IMG/VR virus record: IMGVR_UViG_3300032038_000026
Strand: one strand, 5' to 3'
Source of the DNA: an uncultured virus (IMG/VR IMGVR_UViG_3300032038_000026)
Lineage: Duplodnaviria > Heunggongvirae > Uroviricota > Caudoviricetes
DNA: 64,000 nt
Shown here: positions 3,932-62,865 of the stretch, in pieces
How positions within the stretch are numbered: the first letter of the stretch is position 1
Layout: each line of letters starts with the position of its first letter
Program-made: the position numbers and the translations under genes
Notes under the pieces: generated by a model
The model's input: the letters and a program-made list of their open reading frames with translations, nothing else
Databases searched by the model: none
Told to the model about the DNA's origin: nothing

Positions 3932-4650
3932 GTTATTTTGATATTTATAAAATGCGGCTTAACCGCTTCGGTAATGATTATTAGTCTCGCATTCAAGGGG
4001 AACGAGAACATCTGTTTGACCTTTATTTATTAAAATCTATTTATAGAGTAGATTTTATATATGAAGGGAAACATTATGCTGGTAGTTTAGAAAAAAATAA
4101 ACAAGATAATAGCGAAACAAGACAATATTTATTAACTGATATAAATTTAAATATTCCAAATGGAACTGTTCTAATGATTCCTAATAAAGATAATATTGAA
4201 GTTCCGTGGATGATTTATTATCTTGAAAATATAAAAGCTAGTGGGTATAATAGATATATTGTGTTGAAGATGACGCATTTACTGCGTTGGACCGCGCGCG
4301 ATGGGTCAGAGCAAGAATCGTATGCTTATATGTATGGGCAAGAAGATAATATGCTTAAGAATGAGATTCGTTCACGTTCGCGCATGGATACAATATATGA
4401 AGAAAACTTAAAACTTAGCTTCTTTGTTATGCCTACAAATGGTAATTTAAAAATTGATGATTATTTTATTATTGGTGAAAAACCACTTCAAGAATATTAT
4501 CGTGTAACTGGTTTTGATATATAGTCTACTCCAGGTGTCGAATTTGTAAGTGTTGACCCTATTTATGAATTTGATTTAACACCACCACCAGAAAAACAAT
4601 AGGAAGATGATTCAGAAGATTATTTCTGGTTTAATGGAGGTCAAGAGTAA
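3928..4650 (+). CDS. Putative head-closure/neck protein (TAG read-through)
   Basis: ATGA overlap at start, TAATG overlap at end; includes the 4174 fragment in frame. Confidence 0.6.
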
Positions 4651-5147
4651 TGGCTAATGGCACTAGAAATTTAAAAGATTTAGGACCTAATTTACAAAAG
4701 ATAGTTTCTCGTTTATAGAGTAATCAAAATTTATTAAAACTTCTTTATTACACTGATAAAGACCCATTAAATAAAGAAGATTTAACTTCTGAGCAAATTA
4801 AAAACAATGTTTATGAACAATTAATAAAAGTTATTCCAAGAATTGGTAATAAAGAAACCGCACAAAGTATGGTAACTATGCGTGTGGTGCGCGGTCGTAG
4901 TAATCCAGGTAATGAAGAATTTAGAGATTTTGAAATTGCTATTGAAGTTTTTGTACCATTAACACAATGGTTTATAAAGGATTCAAATTTGCGGCCATTT
5001 GCTATAATGGGAGAAATTCATAAGTCTTTAAATAATAAAACTATCAATGGTCTTGGTAAAATGTCTGGCGGAGATTTTTAGATTAATTTTTTAACTGATG
5101 AAATATGCAGTTATGAAATGGTATATTATATAACTTCTTATGATTGA
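4650..5147 (+). CDS. Putative tail terminator/neck protein (TAG read-through)
   Basis: GGAGG RBS, TAATG coupling; includes the 4869 fragment; ends TGA overlapping next ATG. Confidence 0.55.
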
Positions 5148-5883
5148 TAGTTATTCTTTTTTAAGTATTCCTTTTCAATTTTAGAATGTTTGTAAAATCT
5201 ATCCGCCGAAAATAAAAGAAATTTTATCTGAATCTAATTATCCAGTTTATAAAAAACTTTTCTTTAGTAGTCAAGAAGATATTGAAGATGAATTTACTGA
5301 ATAGAAAATACCAATAGAGTCTATTCCAACTCCTTTTGAATATTTATTTGAATTAGCTAAAGATTAGCGTATAAAAAAAATTATTCTTGATGGATTAGAG
5401 TTTTTTATTAAAGAACCAGTAGTTCTATTATTAGATCAAAAATTAATTATTATTGGTGATTTAAAAGAGACTCTTCCGAAGGTTAAATCTGTTGAAGATT
5501 TACGAATGATAAATAAAGATAATTATTTTGATTTTCAAAATGCTCTGCGGCGCGCGGTTGGTGAGAAAGAAGCTGAGCCATATAATCCAAATGAGAATCC
5601 AAAAGTAAAGTATTTTAAAGCAAAAGCTCGTTTACGCGATAGAGTAAAAGCAAAATCTAAAAATTCACTTACTTTAGGAGCCACTTTGGCATCAATTTGT
5701 TGTATGGGTATTGGAATAACTCCACTTAATGTCGGAGAGTTAAGCTAGGCCGCCATATCAGTTATTATGAGATACTATCAAGAGAAATAGAAATATGATA
5801 TTGATATATAGTCTTTAATTGCTGGTGCGGATAGCAAAAAAGTTAAACCGCAATTTTGGATTAGAAATATTGAAGATTTATAA
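5140..5883 (+). CDS. Tail-module hypothetical protein, possibly tail assembly chaperone (TAG read-through)
   Basis: Continuous frame with TAG=Q including the 5506 fragment; ends TAA 18 nt before tail tube gene. Confidence 0.55.
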
Positions 5884-5901
5884 TATAGGAGGTCATTTTA
5901 A

Positions 5902-6816
5902 ATGGCTAGTATTCTAGATCGTTACGGCATTAAAGAAGTTGCCGACGTAACATTCTATAAGATTAATTCTGATGGTACTCCTGGTGCTCCTGTACTATTT
6001 CTTGATACTCTTAAGGTATCTACAATCGAGCAAACTGCTGAGCAAGTTGACGCTCGTGGTGGTAAAGGTAACCCCAAACTGATTACTTGGGACTATGGTA
6101 AGGAGATCACTCTTACTCTTGAAGACGCTCTGTTTAGTCCTAAGTCTATGGCTATTATGCTTGGTGACGGTAATGTTGCCCAGGGTGCTGGTGGTTATAT
6201 TCGTAAAACTGCTGTGGCACGTCTTGGCGCCGCTGCTGAAGGCAAAATTAAATTAGTTAATGATTATATTACTGTTGACGTGTATGATGCTACTGAAGGT
6301 AGCAAGCGTGTAAAGCTATACTTAGGTGCTAATGCAACTGCTCCTGTTGGCGAAGTAAAAATTAATGGTCAGCTTGCCTTTTCTGTTACTGGTGAAGCCT
6401 CAAAGTTATATGATGAGGATGGTACTGTTCTTGATGAAGCTTTCACTGAATCTGATCTGAAAGATCTTTACACTACTGGTCTTACTGTTTCTACCGGTAA
6501 GAATCTTGATGGCCATAAAGTTATGTTTACCTACTGGGTAAAAGCTACTACAAAGACCATTACTGTTTCTGGCGACACCTTCCCAGGTACATATTATGTC
6601 CAAGGCGATACTTATTCTCGTTCTGACGTTGATGGTCGTGACCAGTTCTTCCAGTTCATCGTTCCTAAGGCTAAGTTAACTGCTGAGCAAACCATTACTC
6701 TTGAAGCCGAAGGCGATCCTTCAACCTTTAATATGAACCTGACTGTTCTTCGTCCAGAATCTGGCGAAATGATGAAGTTAGTGCAATATGACCTTGAGGA
6801 TCCTTCTGCAGGTTAA
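5902..6816 (+). CDS. Major tail tube protein
   Basis: 304 aa, ARGGKGN motif, strong RBS, high-expression codon bias, upstream of tape measure, no TAG. Confidence 0.75.
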   Translation: MASILDRYGIKEVADVTFYKINSDGTPGAPVLFLDTLKVSTIEQTAEQVDARGGKGNPKLITWDYGKEITLTLEDALFSPKSMAIMLGDGNVAQGAGGYIRKTAVARLGAAAEGKIKLVNDYITVDVYDATEGSKRVKLYLGANATAPVGEVKINGQLAFSVTGEASKLYDEDGTVLDEAFTESDLKDLYTTGLTVSTGKNLDGHKVMFTYWVKATTKTITVSGDTFPGTYYVQGDTYSRSDVDGRDQFFQFIVPKAKLTAEQTITLEAEGDPSTFNMNLTVLRPESGEMMKLVQYDLEDPSAG

Positions 6817-6832
6817 TTGAATTAATTATAAA

Positions 6833-24741: not shown

Positions 24742-25071
24742 TTAATCTCCTACACTATTAAATAGATTAGACATAATTTTAGAAATTGTATCGTTCTCTA
24801 TTGTTCCTGTTATTGGATTTTTATCGGTATTACATGTTACCTGAGTATAATCTGGATTATATTCTTTCCCAGTGTATTTAATATCTAATGGTTGAGTATT
24901 ATTTGAAGTATAAGTAATACCATTATTCCACCATGGGTAATATTTCTTACCTTCGGCATAACCACAAGCATATCCCTAATCATATGCTTTATTTATATAT
25001 TCTTCAAATTCTTTTCTACTAAGTTTAATTTCATCATCATGTTTGTCAAGATATATAACAATTGGTTTCAT
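24742..25071 (-). CDS. Hypothetical protein (one TAG; absent from ORF track)
   Basis: MKPIVIYLDK...KAYD*GYACGYAEG...; fills the gap exactly with ATGA overlap. Confidence 0.65.
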
Positions 25072-35518: not shown

Positions 35519-35547
35519 ATTATATCATAAATTCTTTTAATTTTCAA
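35519..35547 (-). promoter_or_regulatory. sigmaA-type promoter for dnaE operon
   Basis: TTGAAA-17-TATAAT with TG. Confidence 0.7.
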
Positions 35548-43818: not shown

Positions 43819-46158
43819 TCACAGCGAAGAAATTCCGATAACATAATTATTAGTTAATTTAATAAGTTTTGTCCCTTGCGCGCCGCGCGATAGATTTGGA
43901 ATATCGTTATATTTAATTCTAATTTGAGTTGTATTAGAATTAATAAGTATATCAGACTGCGACACTACAGGAATAAAATCACACATTGTTTCTGCTTTTT
44001 GAATTTTTACGCCTTTAGTATTTGTACCAGTTACATTAAATTCATTAATAGAAGTGTTTTTACCATACCCATCAATCGAAATACTAAAGAGTTGAGTTGT
44101 ATTTATGGGAATCACACGGGCCGCCACAACTGTATCACCGGCCGCGAGCTTCATACCAATGATACCACGGGTCACACGACCAATAGCTTTAATAGGTGAG
44201 GTTGCCACCATGATAAACTGGCCATTTTTTGACATAATACCAATTCTTTCATCTTCAAGTATAAGAATTGAAACAATTTCATCATTTGAGTCTAACTTGA
44301 TTGCAATTGCACCTGTATTGCGTTTCATATTGTACTCACTAAGTTTACTCTTTTTGATAAGTCCATTCTTAGTTATAAAGATAATGTTTTTCGCGGCATT
44401 ATTAGGATTAACTCCTACTGCTGCTGTAAGAGTTTCATCATCTCCTACAGAAAAATAATTTGCCAAGTATTGTTTTTCTCCAACTGTAAATTCTCCCATC
44501 TTCATATGGTAGTAATTACCTTTATTGGTAAAGAACAAAATCGTTTCTGTGTTCTCACCAATTATATTATCTACCAAAATTTCATCTTTTTCAAGTTTTA
44601 GCTTTGTCCCAATTCCATTGCGGCGTTGAGAGTAAAGTGAAGAAGTCTCTGTTATGAATACTGCGCCTTTATTGGTGAAAGAAAGAGAAAGTTGCTTTTT
44701 TTCAGTCGGTTCATCAGATTCGTTTTCGATATTGAGAATCTGAGTACGACGCGCGTCTCCAAATTTTTGTGTAATTTCACGCCAACCATTTATAAGCTCT
44801 TGATTGAAAAGCTCTTCGCTTTCAAGAATTGCATGGATGCGCGCAGCTTCAATTTGGAGTTTCTCTTTTTCATCTTCAAGTTTCTTTACTTCGAGGCTCG
44901 CCAAACGAGAAAGCTTCATATCAAGAACAGCTTTTGCCTGCTCATCGTCCAAAAGAAAACGAGTTTGTAATTCTTTTGATGCGGCCGCGGTAGATGTAGA
45001 AGTCTTAATTACTTTTACTACTTCATCAATATTGGCAATACAAATTAAAAGTCCATCTAAAATATGGATACGTTTTTCTATCTTTGCAAGATCGAATTCA
45101 AATCCACGACGATAAACTATTTTCTCATGGTCAATATGTGCTTGAAGTGCAGCCTTCCAACCAAATACTTTTGGATAGCGGCCATCATCAAGCATTGTCA
45201 TATTAATACTGAAGTGACTTTGGAGTGAAGTATTTTTGTAAAGATATTTAAGAACTCTGTCTGGATTTGCCCTCTTTGTAAGATAAATCTTTATAAGAGG
45301 GTCAACGCCAGTGAGGTCATTAAAACGTTCAATACCAGGGTTGTTTAAATCATCATTTAGAATTGCTTCGAGTTCTTCGCAAATCGTGTTAGTATAGACG
45401 GAGTAAGGTATTTGAGATACGATGAAACATCTCTCGGTAGTATCCCATTCTACCACAGATCTAAGTTTACATGCTGACCCTTGACCAGTTTTTAATGCTT
45501 CTTTGACTTCTCTTTCATTGAGAAGTAGCGCGCCCGTCGCAAAATCAGGTGCACAGTAGATTTCATCAAATCCAACATCTGGATTAAGGAGTAAAACTTC
45601 TAATGCATGGTTTACCTCTTTAATATTAAATTGTGGGATAGAGCTGGCCGCACCTATACCAATACCCATAGTACCATTTACTATATTATAGAACCCTTTT
45701 GTGGGAAGTACAGATGGATATTGCTCTGTGTCATCATAGTTATCTCGCCATTCTTTAATAGTATTCTTATCAATATCATTAAAGAGACGAACAGAGAACT
45801 CACTAAGACGTGAAGCTGTATAACGGGGCGCCGCCCAGTTGCCGCTTGACATTAAGTTACCTTCATTACCTTCGACCTCAATAAGAGGATAACGCATAGC
45901 AAAAGGTTGGCCCGCACGCATAATAACACCTTCACATGAAGAGTCACCATGAATATACATGCGCGCGGCGCTACCGATTGCTTTTAATGTCTTTTTAAAA
46001 GGTTTTGAAGGTAAAAATTTATCTGTGTAAAGACAATAAAAAATTTGACGTGCAGATGGTTTTAAACAATCTCTTACATCAACGAGGGCGCGCGATTGGA
46101 GAACTGCACCACTATATTGAGTAAAAGATTCTTCGATTACTTGTTTTAAATTACTCAT
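43819..46158 (-). CDS. gyrA: Type IIA topoisomerase subunit A (GyrA/ParC-like) with C-terminal beta-pinwheel
   Basis: RAL.DVRD.LKP, HGDSS, AAPRYT catalytic Tyr, PDFATG, CTD repeats. Confidence 0.9.
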   Translation of the reverse strand: MSNLKQVIEESFTQYSGAVLQSRALVDVRDCLKPSARQIFYCLYTDKFLPSKPFKKTLKAIGSAARMYIHGDSSCEGVIMRAGQPFAMRYPLIEVEGNEGNLMSSGNWAAPRYTASRLSEFSVRLFNDIDKNTIKEWRDNYDDTEQYPSVLPTKGFYNIVNGTMGIGIGAASSIPQFNIKEVNHALEVLLLNPDVGFDEIYCAPDFATGALLLNEREVKEALKTGQGSACKLRSVVEWDTTERCFIVSQIPYSVYTNTICEELEAILNDDLNNPGIERFNDLTGVDPLIKIYLTKRANPDRVLKYLYKNTSLQSHFSINMTMLDDGRYPKVFGWKAALQAHIDHEKIVYRRGFEFDLAKIEKRIHILDGLLICIANIDEVVKVIKTSTSTAAASKELQTRFLLDDEQAKAVLDMKLSRLASLEVKKLEDEKEKLQIEAARIHAILESEELFNQELINGWREITQKFGDARRTQILNIENESDEPTEKKQLSLSFTNKGAVFITETSSLYSQRRNGIGTKLKLEKDEILVDNIIGENTETILFFTNKGNYYHMKMGEFTVGEKQYLANYFSVGDDETLTAAVGVNPNNAAKNIIFITKNGLIKKSKLSEYNMKRNTGAIAIKLDSNDEIVSILILEDERIGIMSKNGQFIMVATSPIKAIGRVTRGIIGMKLAAGDTVVAARVIPINTTQLFSISIDGYGKNTSINEFNVTGTNTKGVKIQKAETMCDFIPVVSQSDILINSNTTQIRIKYNDIPNLSRGAQGTKLIKLTNNYVIGISSL

Positions 46159-46189
46159 GTATTAATCTCCATTTTCATTTTATATAAAT

Positions 46190-46218
46190 ATTATATCATA
46201 AAATTAAAGAGAAGTCAA
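46190..46218 (-). promoter_or_regulatory. sigmaA-type promoter for gyrA
   Basis: TTGACT-17-TATAAT with TG; -35 embedded in a hairpin. Confidence 0.75.
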
Positions 46219-46219
46219 A

Positions 46220-46384
46220 TTAAGACTTCTCTCTATAAGGACAATTATAATGAAAAGGTTCCCAAGGTTCAATTTTTATATTTTCACATTCTGGCGTAAT
46301 TTCTATATTAATTGCAATTTTCTTTTCTACTACCGCTTTAATGGATTCATTAAAAATTTCACTTAAATAATTACTTATTTCCAT
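46220..46384 (-). CDS. Small hypothetical protein (54 aa)
   Basis: TAATG-coupled to the gyrB stop. Confidence 0.5.
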   Translation of the reverse strand: MEISNYLSEIFNESIKAVVEKKIAINIEITPECENIKIEPWEPFHYNCPYREKS

Positions 46385-48237
46385 TATTCTCTAATCTCCG
46401 AAAAATCAATTTTATTAAAGATAAATTCTTTTCTAGGTTCGACATCGCTTCCCATTAACTTTTCCAGCATATATAAACTATCTGAATCTGGTTCGAGTAC
46501 ATCCATGCGCTGAAATTCCGAAGTAAACATTGAACGTTTTGCTTGCTCTGGGCTTAGGGCGCCCAAGCCTTTTGCGCGCTGGACTTCACCTTTAATCTTG
46601 CTACGAACTTTATTAAATTCTTCATCTGTAAAGTAATAAGATTCATTTTTTCCATTCTTTACAATGTAAAGTGGAGAGCGAAGCCAACAAAGACGTTTTT
46701 CATTTAAGAACTCCGGCGCGAGGTATCGAAGTGCGGCCATTATAAGGAGTCCTATATGGTAGCCATCACTATCTGCATCTGTACAAATTCCAATTCGTCC
46801 ATATCTAAGTTTAGATGCATTATACTTCCCTGGTACAATATTCATCGCACTACAAAGTAACTTAATCTCTTCATTTTGAAAAATCTTTTCTTCTGGATGG
46901 GCTAAGCAATTCAAAATCTTTCCTCGAATAGCTAAGATTCCATAATTCTTATAATCGCGCGCTTTCGCAATGCCGCCGGCTGCAGAGTCACCCTCGACAA
47001 TAAGTAGAGTTGCATTTTGTCCAAGAAACTCAGCGTCTTTAAGTTTATCAGATGAAAATACTTTTTTCTTTTGATTCTTTTCGATGTCTTTTGTTGCTTC
47101 GAGAACTTGCTTGCGCGCGCGTTCAGCCGCAGCTTCTGCCTTAGCAATTTTCTTTAACAGTTCAACAATACTTTCAAATTCTTCATTATATTTCACTTTC
47201 ATTTGTTTTAGCGCATTACTAAAACAATTTGATGCAAGAGTACGAAGATTTGTATTATTAATTTTGGATTTGGTTTGATTTGCGAAGGATGGTTGTGAGA
47301 CTGAACAATTAATTACATAGAATAAACCGCCGCGGATTGCATCACCATCAAAATTCTGTTTTGAAAGCGAATTAAACGTGCGCGTGATTGAGGTTTTTGC
47401 GCCGGTGATGGGGCTGCCGCCCTCAGGACAAAGTAAGCCATTTACAAAAACGTATGACTGTTCTTTACCACTACCCCACTGGAAAGCAATTTCAAGCTTA
47501 TCACCGTTTGTATCAGTTACTGTATCATAGATGATATGTTTATGAAGTGGTTTGGAATTATTATCTTTTACAAAATCAATAATACCATTTTTGGCACAAT
47601 AAGATTTGACTTCTTTTGTATTTTGATTTGTAATAGTAAAAGTAATACCGCTATAAAGATAACTAATATTTTTTATATCTTCACAAATTTTTTTATATGA
47701 GTAACCGATTTCTCCAGTTTTAAATACTTCGGGGTCTGGACTAAATTCAACAATAGTGCCATTTTGAAAGGTGGTATCATATTCTTCATAAGATTCTAAT
47801 TCACCTTTTTTAAATGATGCATGCGCTGCTTTGCCATCGCGCGCAGAAAAAACATCAAACCATCGCGCACTTAGGCATACACATTTAGCTCCAATACCAT
47901 TAAGACCGCTGGCATTTTTGTATGCGCCTTCTTCAAATTTACCACCAGTATGAGATTTAGAATAAATAGATACAAGAACATTCTCTCCATCTTCTCTCAT
48001 TCCGAATGGCACGCCGCGGCCATAATCTCTTACTCTAATAGCATTAAGCTCTTCATCTACTGAAATTTCAATTTTATCACCATATCCAGCAATAGCTTCG
48101 TCAGTAGAATTATTTATGATTTCTTTAAAAGCTTGATACGTACCTTCAAGGTCATCAGAACCGAGGTACATCTGAATACGTGATCTTACTCCATCTTTAA
48201 AAGAAAGAGATTGAATATCATTTATTCCATAACTCAT
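46384..48237 (-). CDS. gyrB: Type IIA topoisomerase subunit B (GyrB/ParE-like)
   Basis: EIINNSTDE, DYGRG, HTGGKF, EGDSA, IRGKILN, DADSDG, KGLG. Confidence 0.92.
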   Translation of the reverse strand: MSYGINDIQSLSFKDGVRSRIQMYLGSDDLEGTYQAFKEIINNSTDEAIAGYGDKIEISVDEELNAIRVRDYGRGVPFGMREDGENVLVSIYSKSHTGGKFEEGAYKNASGLNGIGAKCVCLSARWFDVFSARDGKAAHASFKKGELESYEEYDTTFQNGTIVEFSPDPEVFKTGEIGYSYKKICEDIKNISYLYSGITFTITNQNTKEVKSYCAKNGIIDFVKDNNSKPLHKHIIYDTVTDTNGDKLEIAFQWGSGKEQSYVFVNGLLCPEGGSPITGAKTSITRTFNSLSKQNFDGDAIRGGLFYVINCSVSQPSFANQTKSKINNTNLRTLASNCFSNALKQMKVKYNEEFESIVELLKKIAKAEAAAERARKQVLEATKDIEKNQKKKVFSSDKLKDAEFLGQNATLLIVEGDSAAGGIAKARDYKNYGILAIRGKILNCLAHPEEKIFQNEEIKLLCSAMNIVPGKYNASKLRYGRIGICTDADSDGYHIGLLIMAALRYLAPEFLNEKRLCWLRSPLYIVKNGKNESYYFTDEEFNKVRSKIKGEVQRAKGLGALSPEQAKRSMFTSEFQRMDVLEPDSDSLYMLEKLMGSDVEPRKEFIFNKIDFSEIRE

Positions 48238-48487: not shown

Positions 48488-48877
48488 TTATATCATCATC
48501 CATCCGTACACGCCCGGCTCCCAGACGTTATTGTCTACGGTGGAAATCCACACAGTGCCATTGTGACGCACTTTGTCTCCGCTCATATAGGCGTCTTGAG
48601 CGCCAGTCGGCTGTTTCCATTCTGGGATTTCGCCCGGTTTTGCAATCTCCGCGAACAGTGCGGGAACTTTGTCAGGCTCCCAACCGATCTGAGTTGTGTG
48701 GGCTTGTACTACTCGATATAACTTATCGTTGTAGCAGATGCGGTCATTGACTGCCAGCGCCATACCCTCGCGCCAATGCGGGAACATTTCAGGAGTGTCC
48801 AGCGCGTCCTCGTCAGGGAGGGAAAGCGCCGCCTGTTCGATTCGCTGGCGGTATTTAAGTGCCGTTTGTCGGTTCAT
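48488..48877 (-). CDS. Carbohydrate-binding (CBM5/12-like) small tail-associated protein
   Basis: W...Y..VQAHT...W.P, WKQPTGAQDAY..GDKV, NVWEPG.YGW. Confidence 0.7.
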   Translation of the reverse strand: MNRQTALKYRQRIEQAALSLPDEDALDTPEMFPHWREGMALAVNDRICYNDKLYRVVQAHTTQIGWEPDKVPALFAEIAKPGEIPEWKQPTGAQDAYMSGDKVRHNGTVWISTVDNNVWEPGVYGWMMI

Positions 48878-49085
48878 TGTCGTCCCTCCCCATGATGATG
48901 TTAAGTGCTTCGCTGTCGGTCAGTTCGTCTCCCTCAATGGGCGTGTCTGTTTCTGTATAGGTGAATTTCTCAGGAATGTCAACCGCATCTTCATACAGTG
49001 CGCCAGTCTCCATCTGTCGGATCATCATGCCGGCGTCGGAGTAATGCCGGATGCGCCCATCTGTCAAAGTCTCTGTTATGAGCAT
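48855..49085 (-). CDS. Hypothetical tail-associated protein
   Basis: YSDAG..IRQ.ETG..Y..AVD pattern seen beside phage fibre genes. Confidence 0.6.
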   Translation of the reverse strand: MLITETLTDGRIRHYSDAGMMIRQMETGALYEDAVDIPEKFTYTETDTPIEGDELTDSEALNIIMGRDDNEPTNGT

Positions 49086-49088
49086 TTC

Positions 49089-51179
49089 TTATTCCTCCAC
49101 GTATGTATATGTACTGCTGCTCGGATAATTCGTTGCGCTTGTATATGCCGCCAGCGATCCGGTTGGCACGTAAATGATGCAGTCCGTTTGAACATTATTA
49201 AAAGCACTACTGTTCGCCACGGTCGGAGGTGTGGCTGGCAAAAAGTGAAACTCGGCAAGTCCGTAGCAACTGCTGAACGCATTATTGCTGATGCTCGTTA
49301 CACTATTAGGGATCGTGATGGAGGGAAGAGAGTAGCAGTATTGGAATGCATTGTTGCCGATGCTCGTTACACCATCTGGAATTGTGATAGAGGAAAGAGA
49401 GTAGCAACCGTTGAATGCATTGCTGCTGATGCTCGTTACACTATTAGGGATCGTGATGGAGGGAAGAGAGTAGCAACCGTTGAATGTATTGCTGCCGATG
49501 CTCGTTACACCATCTGGAATTGTGATAGAGGAAAGAGAGTTGCAGTTGCTGAACATATTGTTACCGATGCTCGTTACGCCATCAGGGATCGTGATGGAAG
49601 TAAGAGAGACGCAGTAGTAAAATGCATTGCTGCCGATACTCGTTACACTATCAGGGATCGTGATGGAGGGAAGAGAGTAGCAACCGTTGAATACACTGGT
49701 GCCGATACTCGTTACACTATCTGGAATTGTGATAGAGGAAAGAGAGTAGCAATTGTTGAATGCATTGGTGCCGATGCTCGTTACACTATTAGGGATCGTG
49801 ATGGAGGGAAGAGAGTTGCAGTTGCTGAACATATTGTTACTGATGCTCGTTACGCCATCAGGGATCGTGATGGAAGTAAGAGAGACGCAGTAGTAAAATG
49901 CATAGGTGCCGATGCTCGTTACACTATTAGGAATTGTGATAGAGGAAAGAGAGACGCAGTAGTAAAATGCATAGGTGCCTACACTCACTGAAGCGCCAAG
50001 TTCCACCCGTTTAATGCAATTTGCATACACGCGGCTAATGTTTCCCGTGGTTGCCGTACTCTTTTTAAGGATGTGCGCCACAGTGCTTGTACCGAAGAAA
50101 GCAAAGCTTCCGCTTGATACAGTAAGGGTAATGGTGTAATCGCCTTCAGTTGCATATATATGTTGTACAGTCTTGGCTGTGGTAAGGCTTGTACCCGTCA
50201 GAGTGTCTGTGTTTGAGCCATCTCCCCAGTCAACAACGACCGTCCCATTTACGCCCAAGCCGAGATACGGTGCAAGCCTGCCTTGTTCAAAATGGCAGTA
50301 TATTCTTGTCTTCCCATCATCGGTGATGTACATCTGTCCGATTGTCAGCCCAGCATCCGGCATAGCTGCAAGCTGTGCCTTTGCGTCCGAAAGGCTCCAG
50401 TTCCAGCCCTGAGCGGTCAGTCCTGTGTGTGACGGGTTGGCTGGCATGGCAGTCAAGGCGGCAAACTCTTCGGCTGTGTAACTATGGACAATCGTACCGT
50501 CATAGTCAATGAAGTTGACATCCTTTGGCGATGCGGTTCCACCATCGCCGCCACCGCTGACATTTACGGTTACAGGGCTATACGCCGTGCCAGCTGGTGC
50601 TGTGTATGTGCCGTTGGAATTGACAGAGAGAGGAGATACCGTAACAAGAGAAGAGCCTGTGCCAGTCTGCTTGCCATCGGCGTTAAAGAATACTTTGCCG
50701 CTGGCTACATCAGCGGGTTGAGCGGTTGCTGGTAATGTAAGATAAAACGGTGGGCTACTCATTGGGCCATCTATTCCAGACTCATAGTAGTTATAACTAT
50801 CTCTGAAATAAGCGCCAATCGAAGGATCAATATGCGTGACGGCATACTCTAAAACTTCATTCTCATCCATCCAGGAACCAGATACGGTATCAGGAGATGT
50901 CGGTGCCGCCGCACATACTATGTTTTTCCCTGCCGCATACGCGCTCTGAATCTCTGCAAATGTACGGTCAGGGACATACATCTCTTGTGTTTCGTCCCAG
51001 TTAATGGTTACAATAAAATCGTTTCCGCCGCCAAATGCCGTACCTGTGATAAGTGCACCCGTCCTGTCATGCGCCGTATATCCTTGCAAAAGCTTATCGG
51101 CTGTAACAGTGTCCGATGTCAGGTCTATTAAGGTTGTGTTGCCAAATTGAACTTTATTTACATATGGATTGTTTGCCAT
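49089..51179 (-). CDS. BspA-type leucine-rich-repeat adhesin with PKD-like domain (putative receptor-binding protein)
   Basis: About 10 C.SL.SITIP.SVTSIG..AF repeats; DWGDG..H.Y...G.YT PKD motif; NGTYTAP repeat. Confidence 0.85.
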   Translation of the reverse strand: MANNPYVNKVQFGNTTLIDLTSDTVTADKLLQGYTAHDRTGALITGTAFGGGNDFIVTINWDETQEMYVPDRTFAEIQSAYAAGKNIVCAAAPTSPDTVSGSWMDENEVLEYAVTHIDPSIGAYFRDSYNYYESGIDGPMSSPPFYLTLPATAQPADVASGKVFFNADGKQTGTGSSLVTVSPLSVNSNGTYTAPAGTAYSPVTVNVSGGGDGGTASPKDVNFIDYDGTIVHSYTAEEFAALTAMPANPSHTGLTAQGWNWSLSDAKAQLAAMPDAGLTIGQMYITDDGKTRIYCHFEQGRLAPYLGLGVNGTVVVDWGDGSNTDTLTGTSLTTAKTVQHIYATEGDYTITLTVSSGSFAFFGTSTVAHILKKSTATTGNISRVYANCIKRVELGASVSVGTYAFYYCVSLSSITIPNSVTSIGTYAFYYCVSLTSITIPDGVTSISNNMFSNCNSLPSITIPNSVTSIGTNAFNNCYSLSSITIPDSVTSIGTSVFNGCYSLPSITIPDSVTSIGSNAFYYCVSLTSITIPDGVTSIGNNMFSNCNSLSSITIPDGVTSIGSNTFNGCYSLPSITIPNSVTSISSNAFNGCYSLSSITIPDGVTSIGNNAFQYCYSLPSITIPNSVTSISNNAFSSCYGLAEFHFLPATPPTVANSSAFNNVQTDCIIYVPTGSLAAYTSATNYPSSSTYTYVEE
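49270..49985 (-). repeat. 69-bp tandem LRR-coding repeats
   Basis: Recurrent GATGCTCGTTACAC / GGGATCGTGATGGA / GGAATTGTGATAGAGG units at 69-nt spacing. Confidence 0.9.
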
Positions 51180-51190
51180 ATGCTACCTCC

Positions 51191-51778
51191 TTATGAGGCT
51201 ATCGTGGCTGTCTTTCCTCCAGCCGCGTTGTCCGTCTCTGTGTACTGAATCGCATTGACAGTTACCTGAGATAAGCAGTTAAATTCTGTATCTGGCAGAA
51301 CTGTTTGTGATGTTGTGGTAGGTGTAACCGTCTTTGCTTGTGGCTTCATATTCTCCGATCCACTCATCGTACCTGTAATTCCGAGGATCGTAATGTTTTC
51401 GCGGATATTATTTGGCACAAGTGCACTAGCACTCGCGTCATCCAGCCCTACCGTTCCGCTGCCATCATGATAGCCCTGCTGAATAGTATACGGTGTCGTC
51501 TTAGATGAAATAGTACCAGATACTGCTCCACGGTTGGGCATTGTACCGGTTAAGACTGAGCCGCCTTTTGCAAATGTTTTTGTTGCAAGTACCTCTGCTA
51601 CTGCTGCAGTACAATCTGATGAGTCAACATCATAGGTACTTGTGCCAGTTGCCGACGCACCACTCGGCAAATGGAATTTTACTCCACTCTGAACATCTTC
51701 TGCTGTTATGGTATCTCCAGTGAGGTCGATGAGAATATTACCACCATAAATTACTTTGTTTACATATTGATTAGTCAT
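51191..51778 (-). CDS. Tail fibre-associated protein
   Basis: VNKVIYGG.ILIDLTGDT N-terminus shared with the 49089 gene; GTMPNRG..GYHDGSG. Confidence 0.65.
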   Translation of the reverse strand: MTNQYVNKVIYGGNILIDLTGDTITAEDVQSGVKFHLPSGASATGTSTYDVDSSDCTAAVAEVLATKTFAKGGSVLTGTMPNRGAVSGTISSKTTPYTIQQGYHDGSGTVGLDDASASALVPNNIRENITILGITGTMSGSENMKPQAKTVTPTTTSQTVLPDTEFNCLSQVTVNAIQYTETDNAAGGKTATIAS

Positions 51779-52349
51779 TTGTAACATCCTCCGCTATAAA
51801 TACTGTTTTTCCGCTAAAATTATTTGATGTTTCATAGTAAGGCACTTTCGTAACAGTAAGGTCATCCGTCATGAGAAGATCTTTAGTTGGTAAAATCTGT
51901 GCCTTGTCTGCTTTTGGTATGACTGTGTAATCGCCCGTGTAGCGAATTAAAGCTGGTTCTGCCTATGTTATAAAAGGCATATCCATTAGATATGTTTTTC
52001 CATCTCCTATTTTAATACCAGGAATAGTTTTTTCTACTCCATCAATAGTTATAGTCTAATAATCAGAATAAATATAGATTGTTCCTTCTGTAGAAATGAG
52101 ATCTTGCTACGAGTTCCATTCCTATGTTGTGCCATATAAAATAGAACGTAAACCTAACTACTATAAAGAAATATTACCCTATAATGTAGTTGAATTAATT
52201 TGCGGTTTATTTCTTAAGTTATTATAATCCTACCCTTGTGAAGGTGGGCCTGGATTAATACTTTCAGCAAAATCTAAATTATAATTATTACCTATATTTA
52301 ATTCAATAGTGCTGCCATCATCTAAAACAATTCCATGTTCTACTTTCAT
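51771..52349 (-). CDS. Fibre-module protein with KIGDG motif (multiple TAG; absent from ORF track)
   Basis: DYNNLRNKPQIN..L*GN.SL**LGL, GIKIGDG, YTGDYTVIPK; overlaps both neighbours. Confidence 0.7.
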
Positions 52350-54891: not shown

Positions 54892-57800
54892 ATGAGTACA
54901 ACTACAAAAAATGTAGGAAGAGTAAGTATTGTACCAAAAGGAGACTGGAATATTAATAATACTTATATACGTCTTGATTTAGTTACATATAATGGTAATT
55001 CTTATATAGCTAAAAAAGATGTACCAAAAAATATACAATTGAGTAATAATAATTATTGGATGCTAATTGCTTCAAAAGGTGAACAAGGTGAGCGGGGTGA
55101 GCAAGGGGCACCATTTGCTATTGTGAAGTCATATGCTTCTATTGCAGCTATGAACGCAGATTTTTCAAATACCGATGTACAAAATGGGTAGTTTGTTGTA
55201 ATTGATACTGGAAATGTACAAGATTCTGATAATGCAAAACTTTATTATAAAGGAAGCAGTAATTATGTTTTTGTTACTGATATGTCAGGAACTGCTGGTA
55301 TTCAAGGGCCACGAGGTGCATCTGCTTATGAGCAGGCCGTTGCAGGCGGCTACGAGGGGACTGAGGCACAGTTCAACGAGGACCTGGCAGACTTCAAAGA
55401 ATTGAGCGAGTAGGCAGCATCGAGCGCGATTGCCGCTGACAATTCCGCGAAAGATGCAGAGGCATATGCGATCGGTAAGCGCGGCGATACTGACGTCGAA
55501 AGCACTGATCCAACGTATCACAATAATGCTAAGTATTACTCAGAACAGGCGGCACTTATTGTTGACGATGTTGAGTAGGTCATGACTTCTACTACAATCG
55601 GCCCGACAGCGTTTGCCACATTCGATGCCAGCGTAGCAAGTATGCCACTCAAGGGGTTGACGGCTGATATCGAGCCTGTGTAGAATTTCAATGGGTACAG
55701 TCGCCCATGGCTTGGGGGAGCTGGGAAGAATTAGTTATCTTTATCTATGTCCTTTCTTTATGAAAAGAATACATCAGGTACATGGACTAATAATTCGTAT
55801 GCTCTCAATGGTGTTACTTTTGAAGTCCAATTAAATAATGATAATGATGTAATTGGGATTAATGTTAATGGTACTGCGTCTACTAATACAAATTTTTTAT
55901 TCATAGAACGTGCACCAATATCAATATCGGGATACCCACTTATAGAAAATGGATGTCCAAGTGGTGGAAGTAATAACACATATAGCATTACTACACGAGT
56001 TTATCATTCGGATTTTGGTTTTACAGATTATTATGATTATGGTTCTGGATTAAAAATACCATCTGGTGAAATGTTTAAGTCTTTCAGCTCTTAGATAAGA
56101 ATTCATTCTGGTTATACTGCATCTAATCTTATATTCCGTCCAATGATTCGTTTTGAGTTTAGCGATGATGGTGAAACGTTTGAGCCGTACTCCAACATAT
56201 GTCCCATCACTGGTTAGACGGGATGTAATGTGACGAGGACGGGGAAGAATCTATTTAACGAATCTCTGGCCAAATGGAAAAATAATGTCCTTATCAACTC
56301 ATCAGGGGTCGAAGTAAGCAACGCGGGATATAAAACCACCGGATATTATTCGCAAATTGCCCCGGGCTCATATGCTTTTCAGTACAACAAGGGAGATACA
56401 GTTTCCGCTCCGGCTATAATAGCTTACTATGATAAAAATAAAACTTTTATATCTCGCACGTATGCGGTGGACGTAGTGAGCGGAAGCGGAATTAAAACAG
56501 GGCTGGTCACTGTCCCCGATAATACTTGTTTTTATCGTTTGTCACTCTTAAAAAACTACTCAACAAATGTGCAAGTCGAACTTGGTTCTACTGCCACAGC
56601 ATACGAGCCCTATCAGGGCAACACTTACGACATCACCTTCCCTTCCTCTGCTGGCACAGTCTACGGCGGGACGCTGGATGTGGTGAACAAGTAGCTGATA
56701 GTGACAAAAAAGTATGCACTATTAAATGACCCAGATAAATGGAGTAAAACCAAATTCAATATATTTCAATATTCAGACCAATTCTCTGATAGGAAAAGAT
56801 ATCGGACCTTTCTTGAAGGTTTTTTATGTTCTTGCGCAAATACAAGCTCTAGTCAAGTACTTTAGGCAAGGTGGGCTGGTGTTAACACAGATTATTTTTG
56901 TTTTTCGTAGTTTTCACCTGGTAATGATGATATTTTAGATAAAATTAAAACAGCGGCAGCGAACAATAAAATAGCTATTTTGTACGATCTCGCAGAGCCT
57001 CTTGTCTATGATATTACTACTGAACAAGTTACAACACTTCTTGGCGAAGACAATATTTGGGCTGACACGGGTGATGTAACAGTTACTTATGGCGCATATC
57101 TGGAAACAATCAAGACTTACGCCGATCAGGCGGTAGACAGCGCGGCGGCAGCCGAGACCGCACAGAGCGCAGCCGAAGATGCACAGGCAGCAGCCGAGGC
57201 TGTCCTCGCCAGCATCCCCGAAGATTACACCGCGCTGAGCGGAGACGTCGATAACTTAAAGAGCGCAACAATTGGCGGTGAGCTTAATAAAATCGTTGTC
57301 AAAAATGAATACGTCAACAATGCTGGCGCAATAAATCCATATAATGGTTGGGATAGAACGGATTACGTTTTAGTTGCTGGCTGGCGTAAATTAAAGGTAA
57401 CTGCTTCATCGGCTTCAAATTACAATGTGTTTTATGACATCAACAAAAACTTTATATATGCAACAGTAACTGACAGGACTATCAATATTGTATCCGGTGA
57501 AAACGAAGTGCTTGTACCGCCAAATGCGTATTATGCTATCTTTTCCGGTACTGCCGCTTATACTGAAGCGCTCAAAATAGAGGCAATCGAAAGATACGCT
57601 GATTACCGTGATAACAAGCTGTTGCAGTATGACCGCGATTTACTCAACGGCAAACAAGTGTTTGTTGTCGGCCCTAACGATCTGACAATCGGCTATAGTA
57701 TCGATACTGACGGCACTGTAATGGAAAGTGCAAGACGAGCGATGTTCAGCGAATATTACCGGATTTTAAGGCCGCAGAACAAATACCTCATAACTTGCCC

Positions 57801-58749
57801 CGGCTTTAGAGTGCTTATTTGCGAGTACACGGCTGAAAACGGCGAATATGTTTTCTTAAAACGCTCACAATTAGCAAATGGTAGTGCTTTTTGGGCCACA
57901 ACGAGAACAACGCATATCCGTTTTGCTCTTGAAACAGTTAATTCAAATACTATTGAGCCAATAGTCGTATCAGAGTTTTGCAACGTGTTTTCAATGCGCG
58001 AACTTAATGATATTAATACATATCTGCGTGTTTGCACATTCAATCAAGCGCAAGGTTATGAAAGATTTGCACATGCCAATTTAACAAATGCAACAAAAAG
58101 AAAAATCAATTTTCTTAATTTTATTGGGGAATACAACCCTGATATTTTGTGCGCACAAGAAGCGCTTGGGGATTATTTTTGCCCTGATGAAGAAAAACTG
58201 CCAGTAAATAACGTTTTCAACAGAAAATACCTATTCACCCGTCAATCAGGTTATCAGCGTAGAACGTGGAGTAAATACAACTACAAAGAGCCTGAAACTA
58301 TTACTTTTACCCATCAAGCAACAGGCGGCACAAGATTTTACGGAAAAGAAACTTACCTGATTGAAGGTAAAGAAATTGTTGTGCTTAACACTCACTGCGA
58401 GTATCAAGGAAATTCTGATTTTGACCTTGCGAGAAAAGGCCAATTTGAGGAACTGGTCGCTGAAATGCAACAGCACACATACTGTATCTGCTGTGGTGAT
58501 TTCAACGCATGGAGCGCAGACGAATTTAATGTGTTCACAAACGCAGGATTATCATGCTCTAACTGCGGCGATTACGGAGAGATAGACACTTGGTATGTCG
58601 GAATGGATTATCCAGACTGGCCTTTCAAAGCCGTTGACAATATCATTACTACGCCAAGCATCGTCATTCAAAACGTAGTGCGAGGCCCGTATGATTTTGA
58701 CTATTTCTCTGACCACGCACCGCTTATTGCAGATTTGCAGATTCGTTAA
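54892..58749 (+). CDS. ~1285-aa fibre-like protein: collagen repeats, GKNL domains, C-terminal EEP (endo/exonuclease/phosphatase) domain
   Basis: Fragments 54892, 55747, 56230 and 56980 share a frame; GEQGERGEQG; TFN, DILCAQE, NTH, GDFN, DNI, SDH.P catalytic motifs. Confidence 0.75.
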
Positions 58750-59823: not shown

Positions 59824-60189
59824 ATGCCCGATTATGATAAATATGACGCAATAAATACATTAGCTGCGCGCTGGCTAGTGTGGAATTCAAAAGAGAAGAA
59901 AAAACCGCTTGGAATTAAACAATTTAAATGTAAAAAACTTACACATATGTGGCTTTTAAATATTATGAACTCTTTTAGTATTGCAAGTGGTTATGAAGAT
60001 TTTTATTTAGATTGTTCTTTTTGGACATATTTATATATTAAATACATAAAAAAATTCAAACATGTTAAAAGATTTAAAAATGAAGATGTATTTTTAATTG
60101 AACCAGGACTGTTTGCAGTAGAAGTTTGCGAGCAATTTGGCGAACGACCAGATAAGGTTGAATATATTTATAAGGATTATTGGAGATAA
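59824..60189 (+). CDS. Hypothetical protein
   Basis: 121 aa with GAGG RBS. Confidence 0.65.
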   Translation: MPDYDKYDAINTLAARWLVWNSKEKKKPLGIKQFKCKKLTHMWLLNIMNSFSIASGYEDFYLDCSFWTYLYIKYIKKFKHVKRFKNEDVFLIEPGLFAVEVCEQFGERPDKVEYIYKDYWR

Positions 60190-60191
60190 AA

Positions 60192-61163
60192 ATGGTTGAA
60201 ATAGGAATACCAGTTTATAAGGCGCGCGAAACTTTACCAGCTACTTTAGATTCTTTAGTTGCTTAGACGTGCAAAGATTTTGTTATCTGTCTTTCTATAG
60301 ATGGAGATAATGAAGATTACGATGATATAATTGAAATTTATCGTGCGCGCGGGCTTGAAATTAAAGTGATAACTTCTGTAATGAATTGTGGGGCGGGCAT
60401 GGCACGGCAACATGTACTTAATTGTACTTTATGTGATTATATAATGTTTGTTGACGCGGATGATATTCTTATGCCGCGCGCTGTAGAAGTTCTTTATACC
60501 CAAGCTAAAAAAGAAAACTATGATATATTACAAGCAAGTTTTATCAGAGAATCAAAAGATGGCGATGATATAATGATGGCTTCTACAGATAATGTACTTA
60601 CTTGGTTTCATGGTAAAATTTATAAAGTGGAATATTTAAAAAAGAAAGGAATTTCTTTTCTTTCAAATTTACGAATTGATGAAGATTCTTATTTTAATGC
60701 TGTAGCTTGGAACTCGACAGATAATAAGGGGCTAACCGGAGAAGTATTATATCTTTGGAGAGATAATAAAAATTCTATCACTCGTAGCTTGCCGGATAAA
60801 GAATATTTTATTAAAAATCATAATAGTTATATTTATAGTCAGGTGCAAGCTTTAATAAAATTGCATGAAATAAATGAAACAGTAAGTCAAACTTTTATTA
60901 CTAATACTTTAATAAATATTTATTATTTCTATATGCGTGCGCGCTTTTATAAATGTAATGAAGAAGAAATGGATAATATTATTTCTGTTCTGAAAAAAGA
61001 AGAATGGATGCAATTATGGCTTGATGATGGTGAAAATTGGGTAGATATTATTCAAAATATAAAACCTGGGCAAGTATATGATGGTGAATATGTAATTTTT
61101 TATAAAGAAACATTTAATTTATGGGCCGCGCGCCTTTTACGTGCGGATGTGAAAGGAGAATAA
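60192..61163 (+). CDS. Glycosyltransferase family 2 (true start 60192, one TAG)
   Basis: IPVY...LDSLVA*T, N.GAG.AR, FVDADD, ED motifs. Confidence 0.88.
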
Positions 61164-61164
61164 A

Positions 61165-61704
61165 ATGTATAGTAGTGGGCTTAGAGTTGTAATTGTTAAT
61201 GGTAAACCTGGGGTTGGTAAAACAACTTTTGAAAAACTTGCAAGAGATATTCTTGGTGAAGCTTTTTGTGAATGTAGGTCAACAGTAGACAAAGTTAAAG
61301 AAATTGCTATGTATGCTGGTTGGGATGGAGAAAAAGACTTAAAGAGTAGAAAATTTTTAAGTGATTTAAAAGATATTTGTACAGAATATAATGATATGCC
61401 AGTAACTGATATTATAAAATGGTTAGATATGTGGGAAGCTGATTTAAGATATTATAATGTTAGTAGTCAGTCACATGTGCTTTTTATTGATGACCGTGAA
61501 CCAGAGCATATTCAAAGATTAAAAGAGAAGCTTAATGCTATTACTGTACTTATACGGCGGCCAGGGGATGAAGATATTGAAACTTCTAATCATGCAGATG
61601 AAGAAATATTTAACTATACTTATGATTGGACTATTTATAATGATGGAGACATTAAAGATTTTAAAAATAAAACTCAGGCTTTCTTGGATTGGATTTTTAG
61701 TTAA
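61165..61704 (+). CDS. Deoxynucleoside monophosphate kinase-like P-loop protein
   Basis: NGKPGVGKTT, R..L..L, D.RE, I.NDG. Confidence 0.7.
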   Translation: MYSSGLRVVIVNGKPGVGKTTFEKLARDILGEAFCECRSTVDKVKEIAMYAGWDGEKDLKSRKFLSDLKDICTEYNDMPVTDIIKWLDMWEADLRYYNVSSQSHVLFIDDREPEHIQRLKEKLNAITVLIRRPGDEDIETSNHADEEIFNYTYDWTIYNDGDIKDFKNKTQAFLDWIFS

Positions 61705-61749
61705 ATTTATGATATAATTTATATATAAAATAGTGAAGGAAGTATATAA

Positions 61750-62865
61750 ATGAAAGGTTACGTTGCAGGAATTGATTGGATTAATGCGGAAGCAATGAAA
61801 TACTGGAGTTTTACCGCAGCAACTCCAGCAGAAAAACGTCATCAAGAAGCTCATAATATGGTGTTTTCTGGTGACTATATAGGTGCTCTTAAAGTAGATG
61901 GATATTATGAGCGTCTTATCAAAGATGAAGATGGTAACTGCTTTATGGTCGCGCGCAGCAAGAATGTAAAAGGTGAAGCGACAGAAAAGTTGGCCTGGGT
62001 GCCGCAGATTCATGACTTTATGGAGAGTTTGCCGAATGGAACTGTTTTACTTTCCGAGTGTTATTTACCTGGTAATGAGGGAAGTCAGAAGATCACCGGA
62101 CTTCTTGGATGTTTGAAGGATAGATGTATAGAACGTCAAGAGAAAGGTCAGAAGCTTCATTTTTATATTTTTGATGTGATGGCTTGGGCCGGAAGCGATT
62201 TCACAAAGGTTCCTTTTGAGCAAAGAGTTAATTTTCTTAGCGATATTGAATATGGTTATTCTACAAGTGAATATATTGAATGGGCTACATATTATGAAGG
62301 TAAAGAACTTTGGAATCATCTTCAAGATTATCTTGCATCTGGCCGCGAAGGTATGGTAATCATGCGCAAAGATGCCCCAGTATATTTTAAACGTACGCCC
62401 GCGCGCGTAAGTCTTAAAATTAAGAAAGAACTTCGAGAGTCAATTGATTGTTTCTTTACTGGTAAGGCGGCCGCGCCTACAAAGTATTATACTGGTAAAG
62501 AAATCGAATCGTGGAAGTATTGGATTAATGAAACGACTGGAGAAACTCTTCAAGAAGGGAATCACTATTATGAGTCCTCTATTGAAGGAAAGCCATATTC
62601 TGCGGTGACGAAGCCTTTTTACTATCACTGGGCTGGTAGTTTGGAAATTGGTGTGATGGATGGCGATAAAGAAGTGGGTATTGGTTATCTTAGTGGACTT
62701 ACTGATGAAGTCAAAGCTAATTATAAAGATTATACCCATTATGTAATTGAAGTTGGAGCTATGCAGTTGACACCAGACGGCGCGCTGCGGCATGGGAAAA
62801 TGCTTGGGTGGCGGCCGGATAAACCTTGGCGCGAATGTAGTATTGAACAAATTAAGAATATGTAA
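61750..62865 (+). CDS. ATP-dependent DNA ligase
   Basis: KVDG, FDV, EGMV, KIK, LRH...RPDK. Confidence 0.88.
   Translation: MKGYVAGIDWINAEAMKYWSFTAATPAEKRHQEAHNMVFSGDYIGALKVDGYYERLIKDEDGNCFMVARSKNVKGEATEKLAWVPQIHDFMESLPNGTVLLSECYLPGNEGSQKITGLLGCLKDRCIERQEKGQKLHFYIFDVMAWAGSDFTKVPFEQRVNFLSDIEYGYSTSEYIEWATYYEGKELWNHLQDYLASGREGMVIMRKDAPVYFKRTPARVSLKIKKELRESIDCFFTGKAAAPTKYYTGKEIESWKYWINETTGETLQEGNHYYESSIEGKPYSAVTKPFYYHWAGSLEIGVMDGDKEVGIGYLSGLTDEVKANYKDYTHYVIEVGAMQLTPDGALRHGKMLGWRPDKPWRECSIEQIKNM

Follow-up and report, generated by a model that had tools for sequence, protein, structure and literature searches.

The stretch analysed was a 64-kb window (64,000 nucleotides, the whole piece of DNA examined) of an uncultured Caudoviricetes virus (IMG/VR IMGVR_UViG_3300032038_000026), and the feature under study was its excess of the palindrome GCGCGC and of other short words made of G and C. 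The window was a piece of a siphovirus-type phage genome, with the head and tail genes encoded on the + strand and the replication genes (DnaE, primase, helicase, RecJ, Sak4, type II topoisomerase, and NrdD) grouped in a block on the - strand, followed by accessory genes. Genetic code 15, in which TAG codes for Gln, raised the cover by open reading frames from 0.64 (code 11) to 0.96, and the code-15 reading of the phage spanned positions 57-63821. The in-frame TAGs were concentrated in tail genes (84 in the tape-measure gene and 38 in a large tail gene), and none occurred in the capsid, tail tube, DnaE or topoisomerase genes. No tRNA genes were found within the window. Close relatives were a mixture of code 15 and code 11. 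Complete relatives measured 110-145 kb and had direct terminal repeats, and the closest of them, G003, was 90% identical to the window.

Excess of GCGCGC over null models and control phages

The window contained 52 matches to GCGCGC at 49 loci, a density of about 1 per 1.2 kb, and three of the loci (23927, 38764, and 47113) were GCGCGCGC. A sequence-only reading made earlier had counted about 49 loci, and all 49 of its coordinates matched, while its estimate of 30-33% GC fell short of the measured G+C of 34.6%. The expected count was 1.7 under a zero-order model, 13.8 under an order-2 Markov model, and 48.8 (z 0.5) under a maximal-order model, which means that the 5-mers within it explain the count of the hexamer. 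The codon-preserving null consisted of 200 within-gene synonymous shuffles of the code-15 genes. Genes held 51 of the 52 matches against 7.1±2.7 (maximum 17) in these shuffles, and reading frames 0, 1, and 2 held 27, 11, and 13, respectively. The excess was also present in intergenic DNA (31 kb from five genomes), with 34 CGCGC vs. 7.8 and 7 GCGCGC vs. 0.6. Seven control phages of 26-36% G+C (50 kb each) contained 0 or 1 GCGCGC, the observed and expected counts being 1 vs. 2.2 for T4, 0 vs. 0.0 for crAss001, 0 vs. 0.3 for PBC2, 0 vs. 0.7 for E3, 0 vs. 0.5 for a Staphylococcus SPbeta-like phage, 1 vs. 0.4 for EF1, and 0 vs. 0.0 for a Clostridioides phage.

Results showed that the excess of G/C words is real, strong, and family-wide. 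The earlier proposal that a lineage-specific process makes or keeps the sites, acting on DNA rather than on codons, was borne out by the shuffle, which the excess survived with every frame represented, by the unrelated phages of similar GC, from which it was absent, and by a foreign cassette that was blank (listed below). Codon or dicodon bias was rejected on the synonymous shuffle, the three frames, the intergenic excess, and codon-junction terms in the later fits. Tandem repeats were rejected as the source, since the nine arrays in the window hold none of the sites.

G/C islets and duplex stability

Enrichment extended beyond the palindrome. Compared with the shuffles, GCGCGC was 7.1-fold, CGCGCG 9.5-fold (42 vs. 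4.4), and CCGCGC 5.3-fold over-represented, and the non-palindromic hexamers GCGGCC (43 vs. 8.6, 5.0-fold) and CGCGGC (44 vs. 9.9) were enriched as well. Among the 5-mers, CGCGC/GCGCG occurred 185 times vs. 44, and GCCGC/GCGGC 138 times vs. 57. Other G/C palindromes showed no enrichment (GGCGCC 4 vs. 4.2; GCCGGC 5 vs. 3.9), nor did GCGC flanked by A/T bases (37 vs. 35) or CGCG between A/T bases (13 vs. 28), and CCCCC was scarcer than in the shuffles (2 vs. 17). A total of 206 G/C-only runs of at least 6 bases were counted in the window, and exact 9-base G/C runs in genes numbered 24 vs. 4.6 expected. In a greedy search over 4159 motifs for predictors of synonymous codon choice, the earliest picks were degenerate patterns (GCGSS, GSNS). 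A G/C neighbour at 1-3 bp raised the odds of G/C at fourfold sites 1.5-fold, and one at 4-6 bp raised them 1.2-1.3-fold, with a factor of about 1 beyond 7 bp; the same coupling in six pooled control phages was 0.9-1.1. Ala-Arg and Ala-Ala dipeptides were 1.26 and 1.36 times the expected number, compared with 0.92 and 1.02 in controls. The element defined by the word and run counts was as follows:

4294-62785, no strand: window-wide short G/C islets of about 5-14 bp, rich in CG/GC steps, with the 49 GCGCGC loci as their most extreme members

A link of the islets to tRNA was rejected, the window having no tRNA gene.

The ranking of the G/C-only 5-mers suggested duplex energy as the common property. 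A stability term, in which exp(0.5 x nearest-neighbour free energy) was summed across windows of 7-8 bp and given a single weight, was used for the prediction of synonymous choice; its window length and exponent were picked from a 7 x 3 grid, and the fit was made on the window plus G003. The pseudo-log-likelihood gain was 1174 for the stability term, 1078 for the three best motifs, 968 for G+C count, 692 for CGCGC plus GCCGC, and 262 for GCGCGC, gains that are comparative and not P values, being pseudo-likelihoods on two genomes that are 90% identical. In a pool of four control phages, the gain from the term did not exceed 8 units. DNA:DNA energy tables gave 837-1171, RNA:RNA tables 483-540, and the RNA:DNA table 222, and the order was identical in the relatives G015 and G008. 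Owing to these poor RNA-table fits, and with close islet pairs at 12 vs. 11.8, mRNA structure or a transcription hybrid was rejected as the driver. Freely fitted dinucleotide weights (with nuisance terms) correlated with the DNA energies at 0.96. After the stability term, the residual excess of GCGCGC was about 10% (338 vs. 307 in the overlapping counts of the model), and CGCGCG stood at 304 vs. 294. As a statistical description, these results showed that the feature is a substitution bias rather than a word, GCGCGC and CGCGCG being simply the most stable hexamers.

The stability weight of the whole window was 1.93±0.08 (± values on regional weights are bootstrap estimates). Regions that stood apart, or that carried the full bias, were as follows:

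28086-48237, - strand: replication block with full bias, weight 2.01±0.14
59824-62865, + strand: glycosyltransferase, dNMP kinase, and ATP-dependent ligase genes (profile matches) with the densest islets, weight 2.71±0.41
48488-51787, - strand: G+C-richer cassette (G+C 0.43-0.49) of BspA-type leucine-rich-repeat and carbohydrate-binding-module (CBM) genes (PF13306, PF02839) without bias, serving as internal negative control, weight 0.09±0.29
54892-58749, + strand: 1285-aa protein that starts like a tail fibre and carries an endonuclease/exonuclease/phosphatase domain at its C terminus (profile matches), readable only in code 15

The cassette was probably acquired recently. Its leucine-rich-repeat gene contained about ten 69-bp repeats at 49263-49979, and it also held a CBM5/12 gene. 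The gene at 54.9-58.7 kb had a weaker weight (1.26±0.19) and was not blank. Pooled together, the capsid gene, its upstream neighbour, and the tail tube and SSB genes had a weight of 0.83±0.43, and the bias was weak in highly expressed structural genes. The regions reported earlier as free of GCGCGC (48.5-51.8 kb, 55.3-58.7 kb, and the capsid, tail-tube, and SSB genes) indeed held none, but on the stability term only the BspA cassette was truly blank.

Enrichment was equal on both strands (GCGCG 3.6-fold, CGCGC 3.9-fold), and 15 word pairs had like ratios in both orientations of the coding strands of five pooled genomes, polarity being tested against transcription. Neighbours on the 5' side and those on the 3' side also acted with the same strength up to a distance of 6 bp (G, 0.14 vs. 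0.12; C, 0.15 vs. 0.17). The bias acts on double-stranded DNA. The 94 CGCGC/GCGCG islets of the window had a mean gap of 664 bp, and the coefficient of variation (CV) of the gaps was 1.03 vs. 0.96±0.09 for random placement; in 8 genomes it ranged over 0.85-1.27 (null 0.97). No helical phase, periodicity, or excess of close pairs was found among the islets of these 8 genomes, whose lengths of 64-124 kb are too short for the long periods in the 10-90 kb range of HIP1. The lack of polarity and the random spacing disfavour the packaging or Chi-like signal raised in the sequence-only reading. Chi, KOPS, and DNA uptake sequences are also words over-represented genome-wide inside genes; they are defined and non-palindromic, and Chi and KOPS are polarised. 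The phage islets differ from them in having neither a fixed word nor polarity relative to transcription.

Spread among relatives and direction of substitution

A search with the topoisomerase B subunit yielded 78 loci, several of them duplicates, and the 66 of at least 7 kb were used. CGCGC was enriched at least 2-fold in 62 of the 66, and the remaining four had GCCGC enriched 2.3-3.0-fold. The relative G012 contained no GCGCGC; it avoided GCGC (9 vs. 29), CGCG (2 vs. 20), and GGCC (6 vs. 32) and over-used GGCGG and GCGGC. Weights across genomes were fitted with 22 avoidance and 32 codon-junction terms in 16 of 18 listed genomes, and the stability weights of seven family genomes were 2.25 (window), 2.57, 2.02, 1.93, 2.08 (G012), 2.20, and 1.27 (G015). 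In the window, the GCGC and CGCG terms beside the stability term were -0.1 and 0.0. The idea of the GCGCGC palindrome as the unit, analogous to cyanobacterial HIP1, was thus not upheld: non-palindromic G/C words were equally enriched, the GCGC and CGCG terms vanished beside stability, and a relative without GCGCGC kept the same weight. The avoidance terms point to the words that appear in a given phage being set by what the restriction systems of its hosts leave allowed. In G015, G016, G018, and G019, TTAA was strongly avoided (201 vs. 680 in G015) and Ala-Ala junctions were scarce, which suggests restriction pressure reaching the protein level.

Distant capsid relatives, Phass-1 and EF1, had weights of 1.0 and 1.4 with little fit, and the unrelated T4, PBC2, crAss001, E3, and the Staphylococcus phage ranged from -0.86 to 0.25. 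Across 86 DnaE loci the signal was strongest in the clade of the window and faded in relatives at 33-55% identity, where run ratios of 1.3-1.7 lay inside the control-phage scatter on small counts and were not counted as the trait. The genetic code was rejected as driver, as the run ratio was 2.67 in code-15 loci vs. 2.61 in code-11 loci.

No near DNA match was found among GenBank phages. The nearest named phage was Phass-1, with a capsid identity of 35%, for which its authors predicted Clostridia as host (PMC10607447). Mixed codes in close relatives, recoded structural genes, and cattle gut give no more than a resemblance to the Agate clade of alternatively coded phages (10.1101/2021.08.26.457843). 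A public contig was 100% identical over 3460 bp with the same five GCGCGC sites and may be the window's own source. Four gut runs from 4 studies (3 labelled bovine) covered every one of the 30 bins into which a 20-kb stretch was divided, strain differences being numerous, and one of the runs may be the source. In the host search, capsid relatives occurred in three genome bins with unrelated labels, probably as binned phage contigs, and 12 of 401 genomes gave permease matches, at only 38-42%. A bin labelled Faecalibacillus held a 93-kb contig that encoded a family capsid (61%) and DnaE, either a host hint or a binning error. The observed and expected GCGCGC counts of four Clostridia segments were 0/1.2, 0/1.2, 7/2.0, and 0/0.0. 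Of 20 bacterial 20-kb segments one was too short, and in the other 19, whose low G+C suggests few Clostridia, the CGCGC ratios were 0-2.0.

Of the aligned GCGCGC sites, G003 retained 28 of 45, G004 22 of 50, and G001 17 of 49. For in-frame sites in three pairs, GCGCGC was kept in 15/19, 12/21, and 7/20 cases vs. 25/66, 14/66, and 9/67 for mixed hexamers; other all-G/C hexamers were kept in 48/91, 46/92, and 30/84, and the small low-stability class in 4/8, 3/8, and 4/6. From unstable to stable contexts in the close genomes, A>G rose from 0.058 to 0.153 and T>G from 0.009 to 0.028, G>A fell from 0.30 to 0.16, and A>T stayed flat at 0.07. The most stable contexts had A>G, T>C, T>G, and A>C each up about 3-fold, with G>A and C>T at 0.55-0.8-fold. 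Changes from A/T (W) to G/C (S) thus went up, S>W down, and W<>W remained unchanged in the close group; the other two groups had the same direction for transitions. In the top stability class gains were up about 8-fold, and losses were down only to about 0.64. The gain share of the bias was 0.73, 0.52, and 0.88 in the three groups; a loss-only model was rejected in all three, and in two the free model outdid a pure fixation model by 32 and 26 units. Where CG follows an Ala codon, third-base A went from 0.40 to 0.19 and T from 0.37 to 0.19, with G up to 0.51; at CGN before GC, A was halved.

Candidate causes and the genes concerned

As a statistical description, a base in this family is more apt to become and stay G/C if the duplex of about 7 bp around it is thereby rendered very stable, and on an A/T-ward background such stability-dependent gain collects G and C in short islets. 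The most likely cause, favoured here with less than even confidence, is G/C-biased mismatch resolution in fully paired phage DNA. The mismatches could come from the replisome of the phage DnaE or from heteroduplex made by the Sak4, RecJ, resolvase, and ligase set. They would be resolved without strand information, the A or T partner being removed when the G/C partner lies in a tightly stacked G/C neighbourhood, and each gain would stabilise its neighbours as a local ratchet. The resolving enzyme may be that of the host. The candidate genes were as follows:

31509-35486, - strand: phage DnaE-type polymerase with PHP domain (PF07733, PF02811, PF17657), a core gene and candidate mismatch source
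41456-42439, - strand: Sak4-like single-strand annealing protein (phrog_124, E 1e-50), candidate heteroduplex maker
36365-38098, - strand: RecJ-like exonuclease (phrog_2484, E 7e-151), candidate
22900-23631, - strand: RuvC-like resolvase (phrog_159, E 1e-21), candidate

Mismatch resolution was preferred over selection because gains exceeded prevented losses and the spacing was random. GC-biased gene conversion raises A/T to G/C gains, lowers losses, and leaves A-T exchange untouched. The phage bias shares this pattern of W>S up, S>W down, and W<>W flat, but its strength changes steeply with the stability of the neighbouring 7 bp, and it distinguishes G from C according to context.

Several results weigh against biased mismatch resolution. 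Neither the window nor the 83 further G003 proteins scanned yielded a repair enzyme with a G/C-favouring property. Biased repair or conversion and weak selection share the same equations, and in G008/G024 a fixation (selection-like) model fitted as well as any. The rate estimates assume stationarity and come from overlapping genome pairs, those compared between contexts are uncorrected, and parsimony on trios, distorted by distant outgroups, showed no clear fall in losses. Under a neutral ratchet, the Ala-Arg and Ala-Ala enrichment would have to arise in the face of selection on the proteins. On held-out genomes, position matrices of 18-24 weights beat the one-weight stability term by up to 18% (gains of 458-477 vs. 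407 for the window and 644-734 vs. 620 for G001), and a free 16-weight fit without avoidance terms missed the DNA energies in G015 (r -0.12) and matched them partially in G008 (r 0.64). A Monoglobus chromosome segment had a shorter-range version of the bias, with a weight of 3.3 at 4 bp and 1.1 at 7 bp; this segment and an unverified gut record load on the stability term, with coupling that ends at 2 bp. Given such short-range versions in bacteria, the phage bias may reflect that of a host outside the sample. The Monoglobus pectinilyticus record NZ_OY725739.1 is filed as a plasmid yet holds rpoB, rpoC, and cell-division genes; it showed short-range G/C coupling with CGCCG and CCGCC enriched about 2.2-fold.

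Whether by a strand-blind mismatch-resolving enzyme or by selection on annealing seeds, the bias may tentatively be ascribed to an undescribed process that senses the stability of about 7 bp of duplex and not a word, and that is strong enough to shift amino-acid pairs. No published description of stability-graded G/C islets in phages was found, most subscription journals lying outside the literature searched.

The leading rival, itself unlikely, is weak selection that favours short seeds of very stable duplex, each islet being of slight benefit to the phage. The seeds would, for instance, serve annealing nucleation in recombination or break repair, or would clamp melting bubbles in the AT-rich genome, which the phage's type II topoisomerase would supercoil. 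The length for annealing nucleation and homology sampling is about 7-8 bp, and DNA:DNA energies fitted best at 7-8 bp. The rise in gains, fall in losses, and flat A-T exchange agree with such selection, as do the dipeptide shifts and the retention of in-frame GCGCGC (15/19 vs. 25/66 mixed control hexamers), and the equal drop of A and T at Ala codons before CG fits a model of fitness by product. On the other side, gains of about 8-fold with losses reduced only to about 0.64 exceed the gain given by fixation theory, the islets are spaced no more evenly than at random (CV 0.85-1.27, null 0.97), and many phages with annealing proteins or topoisomerases, here T4 and E3, lack the bias.

It is rather improbable that a phage protein whose footprint is short, degenerate, and G/C-rich (a winged helix-turn-helix protein, the topoisomerase, or another core gene product) binds the islets and that weak selection on total occupancy keeps them. 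The proteins considered were as follows:

43819-48237, - strand: type II topoisomerase A and B subunit genes (PF00521, PF03989, PF00204), islet-rich with 12.0 and 12.4 islet 5-mers per kb, putative islet reader
30376-31509, - strand: 377-aa core protein abutting dnaE, with a B12-binding/radical-SAM-like fold in the predicted structure (pLDDT 88.4)

Occupancy has the same exponential form as the stability term, and the matrices that outdo that term on held-out genomes would suit a footprint; yet the fitted matrices disagreed on the motif and amounted to nearly plain G/C preference. Between relatives, the favoured words shift exactly where G/C palindromes are avoided, with the stability weight staying at about 2, and periodicity, phasing, and polarity are all lacking. 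The family keeps several core genes of unassigned function, which leaves room for a reader. The best matches of the 377-aa model were AprD4 (Z 9.7, root-mean-square deviation 4.6, 289 aligned), RimO (Z 9.5), MgmA (Z 9.5), and MiaB (Z 9.3), and the CxxxCxxC motif was not present in the protein. A role as sliding clamp was rejected, as the model had a radical-SAM-like fold and no clamp was among the matches listed. The protein had 343 relatives, and the best 120 of the 343 gave no Pfam hit or name. The median run ratio was 2.99 in 46 loci with its gene vs. 1.69 in 21 without it, absence being judged on 10-kb flanks, but this association is confounded by kinship and G+C (rho -0.61).

Context-dependent errors of the phage DnaE, by which a mispaired G/C would be inserted and escape proofreading more often beside a stable primer end and then meet little mismatch repair, are a poor prospect. 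The phage encodes its own DnaE, and gains dominate. In B. subtilis deficient in mismatch repair and proofreading, adjacent bases have a strong influence on the rates of substitution (PMC11890065), and the link of neighbour-dependent rates to stacking has been modelled, with a stacking-based model that fits such spectra (10.64898/2026.07.30.741821). As far as the account in PMC11890065 goes, those effects are of the adjacent base and partly strand-asymmetric, while the phage effect is directional, two-sided, and reaches 6-7 bp. Polymerase error is disfavoured because an effect at the primer end would be expected on one side only and for every type of error; the equal 5' and 3' effect to 6 bp, the flat A-T exchange, and the fall of losses in stable contexts speak against it.

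HIP1-like methylation-directed repair through a host cytosine methyltransferase or Vsr-type repair is very improbable, although the density of GCGCGC could suit it, host enzymes are a possible source, and Elhai's G-meC model also predicts selection-free gain of GC-containing words such as GCsGC (PMC4390886), because no single recognition word exists, transversion partners were depleted as much as transition partners, relatives that avoid GCGC, CGCG, GGCC or GCNGC keep the bias, and the phage records held few candidate enzymes. Methyl-directed repair, as proposed in the sequence-only reading, found no phage enzyme: C5-methyltransferase (PF00145) was found in 0 of 35 relatives (17 of them at least 90% complete), Vsr in 0 of 24, and N4/N6 methyltransferase (PF01555) in 2 of 24. 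One further methyltransferase gene lay in the window:

35537-36349, - strand: D12-class adenine methyltransferase (PF02086) with an in-frame TAG

It was present in 4 of 24 relatives and not in G004, G008, G015, or G020, which carry the bias, and it was rejected as the cause since its presence does not track the bias. GATC was depleted in the window (61 vs. 161) and not in G001 (248 vs. 262), which has the same D12 gene.

In the very-short-patch repair of E. coli by Vsr and Dcm, a bias builds graded C/G-containing words, and Vsr is limited to T:G at one methylase site. The phage bias differs in affecting transversions (T>G and A>C about 3-fold up) and in having no special site, and neither Vsr nor a C5-methyltransferase was found in the phages. 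It resembles HIP1 (GCGATCGC) and the alternate HIPs of cyanobacteria, as far as the accounts in PMC4390886 and PMC5861425 go, in that G/C-rich words are many-fold over-represented in all frames and intergenic DNA and are conserved above controls without a coding function. It differs from what these accounts give in that the islets have no single word or one-off halo and are graded by duplex stability, that no cognate methyltransferase was found in the phages, that periodic spacing was not seen at the tested scale, and that the carrier is a phage family and not a host chromosome. The phenomenon is thus known in kind, as directional context-dependent substitution that builds over-represented words, and is here graded by duplex stability.

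An apparent motif turned into a physical rule, in which one textbook energy table predicts both the over-used words and their replacements under restriction-site avoidance. Fitting a stability term first is a direct test for other claims of HIP1-like words. The phages offer a large natural system for biased repair vs. weak selection in holding G+C against A/T-ward mutation in prokaryotic replicons, and the bias is a composition marker of recently acquired genes in these phages and yields a short list of core genes.

A xanthine/uracil permease gene adjoined a nucleoside 2-deoxyribosyltransferase gene at 25068-26812 (- strand), a possible nucleobase-salvage pair, and among the relatives compared the permease was present in the closest ones only. 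The G003 genome contained at least 8 free-standing or intron-borne HNH/GIY-YIG endonuclease genes, and such genes interrupted its topoisomerase B and primase genes.

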